From the NCBI GenBank assembly GCA_965213685.1, contig CBDBZY010000007.1:192001-256000 (forward strand): DNA of 64,000 bases. The letters run 5' to 3'. The notes below the pieces were generated by a model that was given only the letters and a program-made list of their open reading frames with translations, was not told where the DNA came from and did not search any database. The DNA comes from a bacterium (GTDB taxonomy: Bacteria; UBA8248). Positions 18,497-30,220 of this stretch are shown in pieces (within the stretch, counting starts at the first letter, position 1; each line of letters begins with the position of its first letter). The translations under genes were made by a program, and so were the position numbers.

Positions 18497-19297
18497 CTAC
18501 TGACTGACTGGTCCTATCTCCTCTTCACTCAGTTGGAAGTCATGCACAACTTTGAGGAGGACCACACAGTATATTGCAGTAACAATTCCAAGAATGGTGA
18601 CAGAGAGAACTTTTGCTGCCACAGACCACATAATCCAGCGCTGCGCTCTCTTGGCAAGCTTCACTGAGCCCTCGTAGTCTCCCATGTCATAGCGGTCCTC
18701 AGCCTGTGGAATTCAAACACTTGAAGTCAGGACTGAGCCTATGCTTTACACGCCAACTTGCCCCCCCCCCCCCCAGGCATAGATACTATATTCAGTACCC
18801 ACCCCAAATAAGTATCTATGCCCTAGGCCCCCACCCAGCCCCTTGCATTTTGCAGACCAAGCCCCCCCTTAAGCACCCCCAGACCAATTTGTTAACCCCT
18901 CCTAGTCTTCAGACCAGTCTTGAGGGCAACTGAGTTCAGCAAGGGGCTACAGGGTTAGGCCATAGATATTTAATATCTATGGTTAGGCACGGCCTGGGAC
19001 CGTAGCGCCGCCATTCTCCTCTGTTAAGACTCTCTGCTCACCTGGTAGGCCGTGATAAGTGCTATGATGGCGCAGGGCATGCAGCACAGGATCATCGCCC
19101 CTAGCGCTGGCCACCAGTGGGTCTCTGGACGGCGGGGGAGGGGGTCTAGCTCCGCCATCGCCTGCGTGAACGCCAGGACGGCATGGCATGGACATTGTAC
19201 CAGCATCGAGGTTGCGGTACATATACCAGCTCAGTAGTGATTATCTCACCTTTAGCTTCTCTTCTCCTGGCGGCACGAGCGCTATGTGCTCCTCCAT
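18497..19297 (-). CDS. CD225/dispanin (IFITM/PRRT-like) gene A
   Basis: Exons 19297-19250, 19161-19042, 18703-18497, all phase 0. MEEHIALVPPGEEKLK-AMAELDPLPRRPETHWWPALGAMILCCMPCAIIALITAYQ-AEDRYDMGDYEGSVKLAKRAQRWIMWSVAAK plus a TM helix. Has the CC pair and GDxEG..A motif. Confidence 0.88.
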
Positions 19298-19560
19298 CTT
19301 CCCAATAATGACGTTATCGGTGTTTCAGCGGGGGTCTAAATATTTTTTGTACTAGTTCCCGCGAACGGCAGACCATGCCATAGTATTCTTAAAACGATTG
19401 CCTACACAGAAGAAAAACTTTGCCTCTGAACACAAAATTACAAATTAATGCAGCTTGCCTGTATGAGCATGCATGACCCTATTTACAATGTCATAATGAG
19501 GGAAAAGTACACTGTTATATCATGTAAGCAAAAACTGTTCATGAAAATTTACGATGGCAA

Positions 19561-21210
19561 TCACTGCTGCTGGTGGAGTGCAGCCAATTGTTGTATCTCA
19601 TTCTGAATGATTGCGATTGCCTGTTGGACCTGCTCCTGTTGCTGCTGTTGCTGCACCATCGCTGTCTCAGCAGCGGCAACATTTTCTCTTACAACATAGG
19701 TATTCACCACTATGATGATGATAAGGAGAATAGTGTAAATGGTACCCAACAAAATGGACCACTTGGTACAGAAACGAGCTCGTCTGGATAACTTATAGGA
19801 TCCTTCATAATCACCTTTCATGTACTGGTCATCGGCCTATTTCAATGATTCACAAAATTGGAAACATTACACAATGCACTTAGTGACAAGTAATGCGTTT
19901 AGCAGCAAGTATGCAGAGCAAAATATACATGTGAAGAACACACTGCTTTGTAACATTTCCTCACCTGGTAGGCCATGACCAGGCCAATGATACTACAGGG
20001 GCATGCACAGCAAAAGATCATAGTAAACAGAGCTGGCCACCACCAGGTGCCAGGCGCTGCACGATGGGAGAGGTGATGCATCTCTTTTATCTGAACCAGG
20101 TGTGTGTGTGTGCGTGTGTGTGTGTGTGTGTGTGTGTGTGTGTGTGTGTGTGTGTGTGTGTGTGTGTGTGTGTGTGTGTGTTGCTCACACAATAAGGCAT
20201 GTGACTCTTTTACCAATAACTAACAGTCCTCCCCCACCAAAAGGATTCGTTTCAATGTGGCTGAAAACTGAAAGTTTCCCATTGCTAGTAGCACAGCTGG
20301 CAATAGTTGTCTGCCAGAAGCCATCAAGCTGCACATAATCAACCAGGAGTGGATCCAGAGTTTTAAGAGGAGGGGTGGTGAGTGTGTCGCTAGTCGCACA
20401 CATGGAGTGTGCGAAATGTGGAGTGCGTGAAAATTCACACTCAGCTAAGCTTAGGCCCTTAGCTTGTAGTGGTTATTAATTTCCAGAGGGGGGGTTCTTC
20501 AGCACCCCCCTGTATCCGCCCGTCAATTCAGCAAAAAAACGGAACTAGATTACAGGGTAAACAATGTGGAGGCAAACAATGTGGTCTCCATGGTAAGGCA
20601 CTGGGCAGCCTTGTTCAATAGTTCCCCCGTAGTACAATATACATGTCTCAACAAGTCTTGATACATGCAGAACATGTACAGCCTTTTACCATGGTGTGGA
20701 GTGTGGTGTACTCATAGATGCTATACCTTACGGACAGTATAGTATCTATGGTGTACTCCATCTTTTGTAGTCTGCAGTGCCAACCTAAAGGTGTCATTCT
20801 TGGCCCAAGCCTCACTCAAAGTACGTTCCCCCCCACACTCCTGCCATGGTTTCATCTAGGAAACTTTATCAGGGGGGGACGTTCGGTCATTATAATGAAA
20901 GGTGGGCATGACGAAATGAAAAGTAGGTGTGGTTTCTACTCTAAATTAGAATATTGTGAGGGGGTAGTTGAAGAATTGGGGGGGAAGTTGGAGAGTTAGG
21001 GGGGGAAGCTTCCCCCCCGCAGTAGATGAAACCCTGCCTGCTATAGCATGCGCTGCAAAGCTGCAGTTGTATATCAGGCTACAACACTATCTAGTTACTA
21101 GCAACTACTTTGAGTGAGTCTTGATCATCTACGGTAGTCGGTCAACTACACGATCTCACCTTTTCCTGACGGCCTTCTCCGCGTTCCATGAGCTCCACGT
21201 GCTCTTCCAT
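19561..21210 (-). CDS. CD225/dispanin gene B (paralog of A) with Q-rich C-terminal tail
   Basis: Exons 21210-21160, 20090-19965, 19836-19561. MEEHVELMERGEGRQEK-...WWWPALFTMIFCCACPCSIIGLVMAYQ-ADDQYMKGDYEGSYKLSRRARFCTKWSILLG plus a TM helix. Confidence 0.88.
20845..21036. mobile_element. Non-autonomous DNA transposon (MITE), 14-bp TIRs, 5-bp TSD
   Basis: Ends CATGGTTTCATCTA and TAGATGAAACCCTG (one mismatch). CCTGC duplicated at 20840-20844 and 21037-21041. Confidence 0.75.
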
Positions 21211-21555
21211 TCTCGTAGCGAGAGGTGTCTGTAGTGAAAGAAAATACCGTATCTGTTGTGCTTTTACAGTCGACGATAAAGCGCTCACTTAGTAGTCAAT
21301 AGTCTGCTAGTCTCTGCCAGCCGCACACTGTTCCCCTCTAGCTCTGGTTCCTAGACCTTCCGCGATCTGCGCATGCGCTACCCCTCCCTCCGCGCATTAT
21401 ATACCTTCCGAAATCCTTCGGCAAGTGGAATAAAACATTGGCACAACGGCAGTGACAACCTATTAAGCAAGGATTTTGTAATAAAATAGCTTGTTCTACA
21501 TTCAACCGCATGAGTTTTTTTCTCTGCAGGCGCTAGGTCCGCGTAGGCCAGGAGT

Positions 21556-27754: not shown

Positions 27755-28735
27755 TTATGTGTCTGTGGTGGTACTGTTCTTAGCAGCAATAGCGGCAAAT
27801 ACAGCAGTGGGGATGATCCAGCCAAGCTGCAGGAGGAACACAATCACAAGGATTATGACCCCCACGAGAATGGACAGCTTGTTGAAGGTCCGGGCAGAGC
27901 GAGTGGCAACACTTGCCTCCTGGTACCGACCCGCCTGGTAGGCTGAGCGGGCCTGCAGGGGAAGGAGACATCGGGTGTTGAGTGAATGGAGAGCAAAAGA
28001 CACAGTATAATATACATGTGTTCAACATGGACACAGGCAATTGTCACTGAACAAGGAAATGAAGGTCATGTGGAACTGCCATGAGTGAAGTTACCCCTCA
28101 TCTCACTCCTTTACCAAACCTTCCATCCCTCTACATAAGCATTGTTATTCTATTGCCATAGCCAGTCGGTTATGGTGGCAATTTATACATGCAGTTTGTC
28201 GTGACACATGTTGAGCTCTGGAAAGAAGAGTTGACCTTCGCAACATCATGACTTCAGATCACCTAGAGGAACCAACTTGCACACTCAACAGCTGGACGTG
28301 TCCCAATGCTATCTCAAAGTCTGCAAAAAATGGATGTCTACAATCAGTAGCAAAGTCTGTGCGGTAGTACTGTGCAGTGCAATGGCTGGTGAGTGAATGC
28401 ATCGTGGCACATGATGGTGTTATGGAGCTCCTAAGGCTCACTCAGCTCTCACCTCCATACTCTTGATAATGGCGAACACTCCCAGGGGCCAAAAGCAGCA
28501 GAAGGTGGTGAAGAGAGACATCAGCAGCTGGTCGTCAGGCGGAGCTGGTTCAAACTGAGTTGGCTGGTACACAACTGTAGGAGGGGCTGCCGTGTAGTGA
28601 GCCGTACCGCCATCCAGCAGAGGGGCTGCGTGAAGTGCGTAAGGATGCTGCTGGTTGCGTACACTCTTGTATACAGTTTAAAACGTCCTCTCAATCTAAC
28701 TCTCACATCTTACCCTTCTCTTTCTTGGTGCTCAT
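27755..28735 (-). CDS. CD225/dispanin gene D
   Basis: Exons 28735-28714, 28625-28453, 27952-27755. MSTKKEK-APLLDGG...PAPPDDQLLMSLFTTFCCFWPLGVFAIIKSME-ARSAYQAGRYQEASVATRSARTFNKLSILVG plus TM. Confidence 0.92.
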
Positions 28736-29211
28736 GTTTGGTGAAAAAAAAAAACACAAAGGGGACTAAACACTAAACTTAGTCCCGTGATAGTTGCGTC
28801 AGCCGGCCATATCATGCGCCCGGCGCCCACTCCCACGCATCGCGAAGTCATGGGGTGTGTTTAACACTCTTGCAGTTGCGTCCATAATAATGCATGACAT
28901 TGTATAAATAATGAAATCGGCCAAAATAATTTAACTCCAGCTATAATGAACAGACGGGCTATATAACTTTGGTAGAGATGGCTACTATGCTAACTGGCTA
29001 CTAGCTAGCGTAATAATTATACGCTAAGGTTCCATGAGAGAAACAATCATTGCTAGCTTTGCATACATATGCACATTATATACATGTAATATATACACTT
29101 GTTATTGTCCAATTACTACTACTGACACACACATAAACATAAGATCAGCTTGAGTCATACAGCAAGGATAAAATGACTGAATACAAAACATGCCACATTG
29201 GTGGCAGTAGT

Positions 29212-30220
29212 TCAGTCTTCACCGCTCCTATCATCCGGTGCAGTGGCAGCCAACACTGCAGTAGGAATGATCCAGGTAAGTTGCAAGACCAGTACAGCCA
29301 CGAGGATTATGACTCCCACGAGGATGGACAGTTTGTTGAATGTTTTTGCAGAGCGTGTGGCGGCAGCTGCATCCTGGTGCCGACCCGACTGGTAGGCTGT
29401 ACGGGCCTGCAAGGGGACAGGCATCAGGTGGTGAGTGGATAGAACAAGGTGCAATCATGTGTTCTAATAGACATGAACAACTGTTGTGATGGCAGTGAGG
29501 CAGTTTCTGAAAACTGGTCAAACTTTGCTTGCCATACCACCAAGCATAGCACTATACGTGCGCATCAATTATTTGTGGCGAGAGTTCAATGTTTTATGTT
29601 CCATTTTTAATGATTTTGTTTACACAACTGCTCCAAATATGGTTCAGATTCAGTCTCTGAAGGCCTGACATTCAACATTTTCCTGGGGGGGGAGGGGCAT
29701 GCCCCCAGACCCTCCTAAGTACTGCAGTGTTTCGTCTACAGCAAATTCTTGGCCCTTTGAAATTATTTTTTGTTCAGGAGCTGTATCTAGGTCTGAGACA
29801 AGTCTGGCCCTACAGTTGTCTACCATCTGTAAGTGACTGAAGTATTGTGATTGTGAGAAAACACGGCCTCTAGAAGCTCTCACCTCGATACTCTTGATGA
29901 TGGCAAACATTCCCAGGGGCCAAAAGCAGCAGAAGGTGGTGAAAAGAGACATCACCAGCTGGTCGTCAGGGGGAGCTGCACTGACTACAGTTGGCTGGTA
30001 CACGACTGTAGGAGGGGCTGCCGTGTAGGCTGGAGGCTGAGCTTTCTCCTCAAGTACCAGAGGACCTGTGTGTGGACGAGAGAGAGAGAGAGACCATGGG
30101 GTGAGGGGGGGGGGAGAGAGGGGGGGCGACATAAAACAGAGGAAGACAGAGAACTATTGTTATTACTCCTGAAGTAGCGACTTCTCAAGCTGCCTTACTC
30201 TTGTCTTTCTCAACGCTCAT
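29212..30220 (-). CDS. CD225/dispanin gene E (close paralog of D)
   Basis: Exons 30220-30199, 30065-29884, 29406-29212. MSVEKDK-SPLVLEEKAQPPAYTAAPP...PPDDQLVMSLFTTFCCFWPLGMFAIIKSIE-ARTAYQSGRHQDAAAATRSAKTFNKLSILVG plus TM. Confidence 0.92.

Follow-up and report, generated by a model that had tools for sequence, protein, structure and literature searches.

The stretch of DNA analysed here (the window; 64,000 nucleotides [nt] of GenBank assembly GCA_965213685.1, C7:192001-256000, where C7 is contig CBDBZY010000007.1) contains a tandem cluster of five paralogous genes, called A to E, that belong to the CD225 (dispanin) family. All five are oriented on the minus strand between positions 18497, the final base of the stop codon of A, and 30220, the first base of the ATG of E. 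The assembly is filed as a prokaryotic genome, but the reading that we consider probable is that the cluster is animal DNA, most likely from a demosponge, which was binned together with a bacterium, and that its products are regulators of membrane trafficking or fusion.

Two candidate exon frames per gene were translated and scanned against Pfam. All ten half-domain exons matched CD225 (PF04505), with E-values ranging from 5e-11 (gene E) to 1.4e-3 (N-terminal half of B), and seven of them were by themselves above the Pfam cut-off of 27.1 bits. The first of the two exons of each gene aligns within profile positions 1-36, and the following one within positions 30-68. The spliced models show GT-AG borders at every intron and a complete open reading frame (ORF) in the five genes. 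Genes A, B, D and E, with three coding exons each, code for proteins of 124, 150, 130 and 132 amino acids (aa), respectively, while the long model of gene C has five coding exons and 207 aa. The exons, all of them on the minus strand, are the following:

19250..19297, minus strand: A exon 1 (ATG, 16 codons); GT donor, phase 0
19042..19161, minus strand: A exon 2 (first hydrophobic segment and CC pair; CD225 N-terminal half); PF04505 positions 2-33, E-value 1.1e-5; AG and GT sites
18497..18703, minus strand: A exon 3 (loop, second hydrophobic segment, stop); Pfam positions 30-67, E-value 1.2e-5
21160..21210, minus strand: B exon 1 (ATG, 17 codons), located through its likeness to A exon 1; GT donor
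19965..20090, minus strand: B exon 2 (CD225 N-terminal half); Pfam positions 4-36, E-value 1.4e-3, 19.1 bits, the weakest of the ten
19561..19836, minus strand: B exon 3 (CD225 C-terminal half and Q-rich tail; CGA>TGA polymorphism at 19782); Pfam E-value 6e-7
23242-23268, 23109-23198 and 22816-22989, minus strand: three putative 5' exons of C; open frames, GT-AG, phase 0
22278..22424, minus strand: C exon with the CD225 N-terminal half (CCC motif); Pfam positions 1-33, E-value 2.2e-9
21943..22128, minus strand: C last exon (CD225 C-terminal half, stop); Pfam positions 30-67, E-value 2.1e-9
28714..28735, minus strand: D exon 1 (ATG, 7 codons and 1 base; phase-1 donor); N-terminus similar to those of the database proteins P0215 and P0015
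28453..28625, minus strand: D exon 2 (CD225 N-terminal half); Pfam E-value 2.1e-10
27755..27952, minus strand: D exon 3 (CD225 C-terminal half, stop); Pfam E-value 1.6e-7
30199..30220, minus strand: E exon 1 (ATG, 7 codons and 1 base); spliced E aligns with P0215
29884..30065, minus strand: E exon 2 (CD225 N-terminal half); Pfam E-value 5e-11; PRRT1 chain 9zks_M, E-value 2.9e-5
29212..29406, minus strand: E exon 3 (CD225 C-terminal half, stop); Pfam E-value 3.1e-6

The domain is split by a GT-AG intron that follows the first hydrophobic segment and falls in one alignment column across the five genes; the sums of exon lengths place it in phase 0 in all of them. Genes A and B have a homologous exon 1, both proteins begin with MEEH and their first intron is in phase 0, while D and E have in common a 22-nt first exon with a phase-1 donor. 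The initial annotation, made from the letters alone, had described at these positions five co-oriented CD225 genes of three subtypes (A/B, C and D/E), all of them with a CC pair and with a phase-0 intron just after the first hydrophobic segment, and each element of this description agrees with the gene models, the profile scan and the alignment.

A six-frame Pfam scan over the whole 7.97-Mb assembly yielded 18 CD225 matches, nine of them in the cluster and nine on a second contig, C65. The same kind of scan found no CD225 domain in 14 control genomes. Chance is excluded as the source of the cluster.

The gene models are also supported by their relatives. A HMMER search of the protein library with exon 2 of E retrieved 78 proteins at E-values of 1e-3 or lower. 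Eleven of the 12 closest ones are prokaryote-style ORF calls in which a conserved Lys-Ser-x-Glu is followed by a Val (GTN) codon and then by unrelated sequence. Since these 11 relatives read on past the same Glu into GTN, they contain the same intron in unspliced form. Spliced relatives are represented by two JGI records, namely P0010 (60% identity to E) and P0215 (132 aa). Residues 2-130 of E align to residues 3-131 of P0215 (48% identity, E-value 3e-38), and both proteins have the same short basic N-terminus and an identical junction motif, KSIE|ARTAYQ. This end-to-end alignment, together with the common junction, means that the three-exon model of D and E is well supported.

The initial annotation had expected the genes to be under-annotated, as is the case: the record of exon 2 of E is limited to a prokaryote-style ORF of 160 aa (P0001, 29674-30153) that reads through into the intron and carries a precomputed PF04505 hit. 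Many of the closest database relatives are similar read-through artefacts from long contigs of metagenome assemblies.

The N-terminus of C is more tentative. The three putative 5' exons code for a proline-rich N-terminus with PPxY-type motifs, and they show a single haplotype difference in 291 nt, compared with 1.55% in non-coding sequence. From their open frames, their splice signals and this low haplotype divergence we infer that they are real, although translation of C may instead start at a Met inside the fourth exon.

Two putative regulatory motifs were noticed by eye upstream of D and E. A perfect palindromic TGACGTCA, which is a cAMP-response element (CRE)/ATF-type site, occupies 30278-30285, about 60 nt upstream of the ATG of E, and a variant of this site, TGACGCAA, lies upstream of D, near 28795. 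At four places (window 20769-21235, 24972-25438, 26373-26839 and 29642-30108) the word depth in four sequencing runs rises 10- to 600-fold above that of the flanks, for instance 67,000 versus about 150 in run X4. These peaks, which fall in the first intron of B, the C-D spacer and the second intron of E, indicate high-copy interspersed repeats.

A hydropathy scan shows two hydrophobic segments in each of the five spliced proteins. The 2012 survey by Sällman Almén et al. in which the dispanins were defined (PMC3282796, in the passages on conserved features) gives as hallmarks of the family the CC motif, the loop G-D and A-x6-A motifs, a helix-2 Gly and a loop splice site that is conserved from choanoflagellates to vertebrates; an Asp before the first segment is also among their features. 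Since the loop splice site is one of these hallmarks, the phase-0 intron is not new. The CC pair and the helix-2 Gly are present in the five proteins. The loop G-D is found in A, B and C, while D and E carry G-R, as do P0010, P0215 and P0015. The A-x6-A motif is found in C, D and E, its first Ala being Ser in A and B. The Asp before the first segment is present in C, D and E and absent from A and B, which also have extra Trp and Cys residues. A loop GxxxG (G-D-Y-E/Q-G) occurs in A, B and C and not in D and E. The 11 residues that precede the CC pair are moderately amphipathic in D/E (hydrophobic moment 0.40, which roughly 5% of shuffles attain). The moment is 0.19-0.22 in A, B and C.

The AlphaFold model of P0215, which is a D/E-type relative, consists of helices 44-54, 56-74 and 78-129 (mean pLDDT 77) and has the shape of a kinked helical hairpin followed by a long helix. 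A Foldseek search of this model against the PDB (library to 2026-04-08) gave no match at E-values of 0.001 or lower, just generic helical hairpins. In sequence searches, the sole solved CD225 chain matched was that of PRRT1 (entries 9zks, 9zkt and 9zku). The similarity to chain 9zks_M is restricted to the D/E type (E-value 2.9e-5 for exon 2 of E and 3.1e-8 for P0010), and neither exon 3 of A nor the last exon of C had a match in the PDB at E-values up to 10.

The five proteins fall into three subtypes, with amino-acid identities of 71% between D and E, 47% between A and B and 20-33% across subtypes. For the pair D-E, non-synonymous divergence (dN) is 0.20 and synonymous divergence (dS) is 0.54, giving a dN/dS of 0.37; synonymous sites of A and B are saturated. 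A 104-nt stretch of exon 2 of D and E (28444-28547 and 29875-29978), which extends 9 nt into the intron and includes the splice donor, is 93% identical. Such identity, at an overall dS of 0.54, suggests that gene conversion has acted locally or that constraint is very strong.

A maximum-likelihood tree was built from 35 rows and 125 columns. The rows were the five spliced proteins and 30 full-domain database proteins, namely HMMER hits and members of their clusters that match both domain halves, exon-only fragments being left out; the set holds no sequences of IFITM, PRRT2, SynDIG1, TMEM91, TMEM233 or TRARG1. D and E are sisters (94/82) and are then joined by P0010 (99/93*). Because this outside relative joins only after D and E have been united, the D/E duplication is lineage-specific. 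The trio belongs to a group of nine rows (91/83) with both Amphimedon proteins and four metagenome proteins. The fish PRRT1 (P0049) and the bilaterian PRRT1-like proteins are placed apart from D/E, in the other large group (23 rows, 94/93). A very long branch leads to the sister pair A and B (100/99*). C, likewise long-branched, groups with A and B (94/77); this grouping was not relied on, as it is a possible long-branch artefact. The independent expansion proposed in the initial annotation thus holds in part: D and E split after their divergence from the nearest outside relative and A and B are sisters, whereas the tree does not resolve the origin of the three subtypes.

Among 30 relatives looked up at NCBI, nine have an organism name. 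Seven of these nine are called PRRT1 or PRRT1-like, two have no protein name and none is called IFITM. One UniRef name, "Interferon-induced transmembrane protein", is the title of the Pfam family. The named PRRT1-like relatives are from Amphimedon (two proteins, on one 473-kb scaffold), Ptychodera, Saccoglossus, Mizuhopecten and Tubulanus. For A and B, a word-index homology search with the exon-3 alignment confirmed none of 176 candidates at E-values of 0.1 or lower, and a metagenome scan with the A/B alignment gave 120 pattern matches, none of them confirmed. The word-index search with exon 2 of D returned only the ORF call of the window itself. Scans with the D/E alignment produced only weak, short matches, five loci in genome contigs (all bacterial records) and nine in metagenome contigs, and a search of the ESM Atlas with exon 3 of A found only generic CD225 clusters, below 0.9. 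On these comparisons we propose that D and E would belong to a sponge-wide "PRRT1-like" group, that A and B would be a strongly diverged pair and that C would represent a third type.

The second contig with CD225 matches, C65 (29,852 nt), is collinear with C7:197211-227572 (window positions 5211-35572, approximately) in 15 blocks of 94.6-98.6% identity, and it carries the same five genes. Since the collinearity extends over the whole 29.9 kb, C65 is the other haplotype; a second locus is ruled out. In coding sequence (CDS), the two haplotypes differ at seven positions in A (one non-synonymous, six synonymous), four in C (one non-synonymous), two in D (one non-synonymous), four in E (two non-synonymous) and eight in B (three non-synonymous, and a CGA>TGA change that makes codon 78 a stop). 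The CDS of C, D and E diverges two to five times less (0.5-1.0%) than their non-coding sequence (1.6-3.4%). A, C, D and E are under purifying selection.

Gene B behaves differently. Seven of its eight differences are within exon 3, and its coding divergence (1.8%) is higher than the non-coding one (1.0%). The stop results from a G>A change on the plus strand at window position 19782, which converts R78 into a stop codon in the loop before the second hydrophobic segment. The haplotig C65 carries this allele, as do contigs from runs X1, X2 and X3; the window and run X4 lack it. Since it recurs in C65 and in contigs of three runs, an assembly error is excluded and the polymorphism is real. With a stop-codon allele segregating, B seems to be dispensable or decaying.

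The assembly comprises 7.97 Mb in 71 contigs and is rated as 94% complete with 3.7% contamination. However, it consists of two kinds of DNA. Twenty-two contigs (4,895,517 bases, 61%) have less than 57% guanine plus cytosine (GC), with a range of 42-56% and one small contig at 33%. Their ORF coverage is 0.1-0.8, and the larger ones carry tens to hundreds of (CA)n runs. The remaining 49 contigs have about 61-69% GC, lie under long ORFs over 76-100% of their length and have no microsatellites. The contig of the window, with 50% GC (compared with about 65% in the dense contigs) and (CA)n microsatellites, belongs to the first kind. Across 41 genomes of the same bacterial family, genome size is 2-4.6 Mb and CD225 matches are absent from all 41. 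More than half of this bacterial genome record (4.90 of 7.97 Mb) is therefore intron-bearing, microsatellite-rich eukaryotic DNA. Scores of contamination that are based on marker genes do not reveal this mixture.

The neighbours of the cluster are housekeeping genes, with the following exons:

4237-4578 and 7128-7550, minus strand: DNA polymerase delta/epsilon subunit B domains (POLD2, DNA polymerase delta subunit 2)
8382-8651, plus strand: WD40 repeat protein
50522-56453, minus strand: ERCC6 (SNF2 and helicase-C domains)

The introns of the window, the ERCC6, POLD2 and WD40 exons and the absence of CD225 from the 41 related bacteria together show that the CD225 genes are eukaryotic and were co-binned with a bacterium. 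In the 4.9 Mb of host DNA in the assembly, no dispanin was found beyond the cluster and its haplotig. The best match of the ERCC6 exon is from the demosponge Halichondria panicea (63% identity, E-value 1.3e-43) and the second-best is from a coral (E-value 3.4e-37). In addition, two Amphimedon proteins are among the best organism-named dispanin relatives of D/E. On the ERCC6 exon and the grouping of D/E with the Amphimedon proteins, the host would probably be a demosponge, in line with the invertebrate origin put forward in the initial annotation. Two other open frames were noticed around the cluster. A 641-aa ORF at 50522-52444 is full of poly-Gly and (TG)n-derived low complexity. A 755-aa frame at 38166-40430 (minus strand) has no Pfam match and is mostly of low complexity (Gly/Glu and Ser/Pro/Leu repeats together with a (TG)n tract); close to its C-terminal end, some 120 aa look more ordinary.

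With respect to function, comparison of sequences suggests that the cluster genes are ordinary PRRT1-like animal dispanins and not IFITM orthologues. Each product would be small (about 124-207 aa), beginning with an N-terminus that is short or proline-rich, continuing with a first hydrophobic segment that bears a double Cys and with a polar loop of some 20 residues, and ending in a transmembrane helix. The ancient dispanin intron splits the domain where the loop starts. By analogy with other members of the family, the products are probably S-acylated on their cysteines and would reside in endomembranes or in the plasma membrane, where they probably regulate vesicle trafficking and fusion or partner with other membrane proteins. 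The form conserved in sponges would be D/E, with A, B and C as diverged paralogues. A role of CD225 proteins in the regulation of vesicle transport and fusion has been reported, as has the binding of SNAREs by PRRT2, TUSC5 and IFITM3 through a motif in the domain (PMC11730294, in the part on SNARE binding). PRRT2 and TUSC5 (TRARG1), members of subfamily B that bind Q-SNAREs and regulate vesicle fusion, provide the most general mechanistic model. However, they are described as restricted to tetrapods (PMC3282796, in its account of the subfamilies), have C-F-C in place of CC and have long N-termini.

The closest named counterparts are the Amphimedon queenslandica PRRT1-like proteins XP_011410439.1 (P0015) and XP_011410461.1 (P0053). 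They have the same small size (125-135 aa) and the same CC-F-W-P-x-G first segment, and P0015 also carries the GR loop and an MSEKKE-type N-terminus like that of D and E; however, their identity to D/E is just 38-47%. The best-matching solved protein is vertebrate PRRT1/SynDIG4 (subfamily D; chain M of 9zks), which has in common with the cluster PP-x-D, CCFWP-x-G and an Arg located six positions ahead of the loop Gly. It differs in its proline-rich N-terminus of about 200 aa, in its G-D loop and in its position in another group of the tree than D/E, so that one-to-one orthology with vertebrate PRRT1 is not observed (the fish P0049 falls in that other group).

Several observations weigh against the reading of the cluster as sponge genes that regulate membrane trafficking or fusion. 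Biochemical function is not readable from sequence, and characterised dispanins are diverse in their roles, which include virus restriction, SNARE control and auxiliary functions for AMPA receptors. No copy has the full set of motifs of the studied CD225 proteins. G91 and G95 of IFITM3 and G305 of PRRT2 are part of a loop GxxxG that drives oligomerisation, G91/G95 being needed for restriction (PMC7665892, in the results that concern this motif), and D/E lack the loop glycine that IFITM3 and PRRT2 need (GR...E/D instead). R85 of IFITM3 and R295 of PRRT2 occupy an R-SNARE-like "0 layer" position (PMC11730294); the Arg of this column, ten residues before the loop Gly, is found in D and E only, its place being taken by Glu in A, Asp in B and His in C. 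For the 5' exons of C there is no homology support, since BLAST alignments to relatives start at residue 102 or later. In the four sequencing runs in which the locus occurs, none of them on record as RNA, the sequences behave like genomic contigs and no joint coincides with an exon boundary. The sponge assignment depends on one flanking exon plus one grouping of the tree. Finally, A and B are without detected relatives, which, with such short queries, is weak evidence.

The initial annotation framed the cluster as an IFITM-like membrane-defence locus, whose products would stiffen membranes, block virus-cell fusion and be induced on infection. The relatives do not bear out this framing, which we regard as unlikely: seven of the nine named ones are PRRT1 or PRRT1-like and none is IFITM, the solved match is PRRT1, and subfamily A (IFITM), like subfamily B, is placed near the teleost radiation, IFITM being a vertebrate subfamily (PMC3282796, in the sections on subfamily origins). 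IFITM1-3 do have in common with the cluster the Pfam domain, the plan of two segments, the CC pair, the intron position and the tandem arrangement. However, they are interferon-inducible and need G91/G95, R85, F75/F78 and an amphipathic helix (PMC7665892 and PMC11730294, in the parts dealing with these residues), and no copy in the cluster has all of them. Features of this kind are scattered among the copies: the loop GxxxG in A, B and C, the "0 layer" Arg in D and E and, also in D/E, 11 residues of moderate amphipathicity ahead of the CC pair (0.40). Tandem duplication and the segregating null allele of B are both common in genes involved in conflict, and restriction of influenza virus in human cells has been reported even for CD225 proteins of mycobacteria (PMC4488726). 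On the other hand, none of the 13 GAAANNGAAA (interferon-stimulated response element-like) and none of the eight NF-kB-like sites of the window lie within 17.5-31.5 kb (a weak test, as the consensus is that of vertebrates), no immune genes flank the cluster, which has the housekeeping neighbours described above, and the dN/dS of D-E shows no overall sign of positive selection.

A role in the handling of symbionts, in which the products would control the fusion of symbiont vacuoles or phagosomes with lysosomes in a microbe-rich sponge, is comparably doubtful. Assembly of the host contig together with a bacterium means that the animal carries bacteria. For a CD225 gene of Hydra viridissima with PRRT1 as its annotation, expression is reported to be higher in symbiotic than in aposymbiotic polyps (6.1-fold by microarray and 6.7-fold by quantitative PCR; PMC6019070, in its expression results), and IFITM3 is said to shift the fusion of endosomes towards lysosomes (PMC11730294). 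However, these points support the role purely by analogy, and no sponge study was found in the literature on PRRT1 together with sponge, coral or symbiosis, or among 40 of the 64 papers on PRRT1 alone.

There is an equally small chance that the products serve other membrane proteins as auxiliary subunits, in the way that vertebrate PRRT1/SynDIG4 serves AMPA receptors. No solved chain other than that of PRRT1 was matched, and PRRT1 is reported to use its CD225 domain, which is embedded in the membrane, for binding to GluA1 (bioRxiv 10.64898/2026.06.24.734257). However, the fish PRRT1 lies outside the D/E group, "PRRT1-like" is an automatic best-hit name, no sponge partner is known and the role of PRRT1 at AMPA receptors has no known sponge counterpart.

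A broader proposal combines defence and symbiosis. The cluster might be a module of innate defence or symbiosis of the sponge, in which D/E would be conserved core dispanins determining how competent endosomes and phagosomes are for fusion, and the fast-diverging A/B would be in conflict with viruses or intracellular microbes. The part given to A/B stems from their having no detected relatives, from their missing Asp and extra Cys and Trp residues, and from the null allele of B, which segregates between individuals. This proposal is improbable too; if true, CD225 anti-fusion defence would be older than interferon and would go back to the base of animals.

That these are bacterial dispanin genes, as implied by the filing of an assembly with prokaryotic completeness scores and allowed by the existence of bacterial dispanins (PMC3282796, in its section on bacteria), is refuted by the spliceosomal GT-AG introns in all five copies, the (CA)n microsatellites and the lower GC, the ERCC6 and POLD2 neighbours, the heterozygous haplotig and the absence of the family from the 41 related bacteria.

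Taken as sponge regulators of membrane trafficking or fusion, the five genes represent in many respects ordinary biology. Invertebrate dispanins are described as resembling subfamilies C and D (SynDIG/TMEM91 and PRRT1), and repertoires of 12 genes in amphioxus, nine in sea urchin and four in Nematostella have been reported (PMC3282796, in the parts covering invertebrates), as well as 10 dispanins in Aplysia (PMC9334734). Expansion of the family is thus the norm in invertebrates and not the exception. Multi-copy, lineage-specific sets are known in amphioxus, sea urchin and Aplysia, and the Amphimedon homologues were already annotated; the cluster differs from other invertebrate repertoires in its divergent A/B pair without detected relatives.

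The early animal history of the family is thin, and sponges were not among the animals of the 2012 survey (PMC3282796), in whose text the words "Amphimedon" and "sponge" do not appear. The cluster adds to it a sponge example with exact gene models. It also calls for caution, since bacterial dispanins have been proposed as the source of the animal family (PMC3282796, in its discussion of origins) and "prokaryotic" CD225 entries such as P0001 can feed false bacterial dispanins into the debate on transfer from bacteria to animals. The cluster places three very different types of dispanin next to each other in one early-branching animal.

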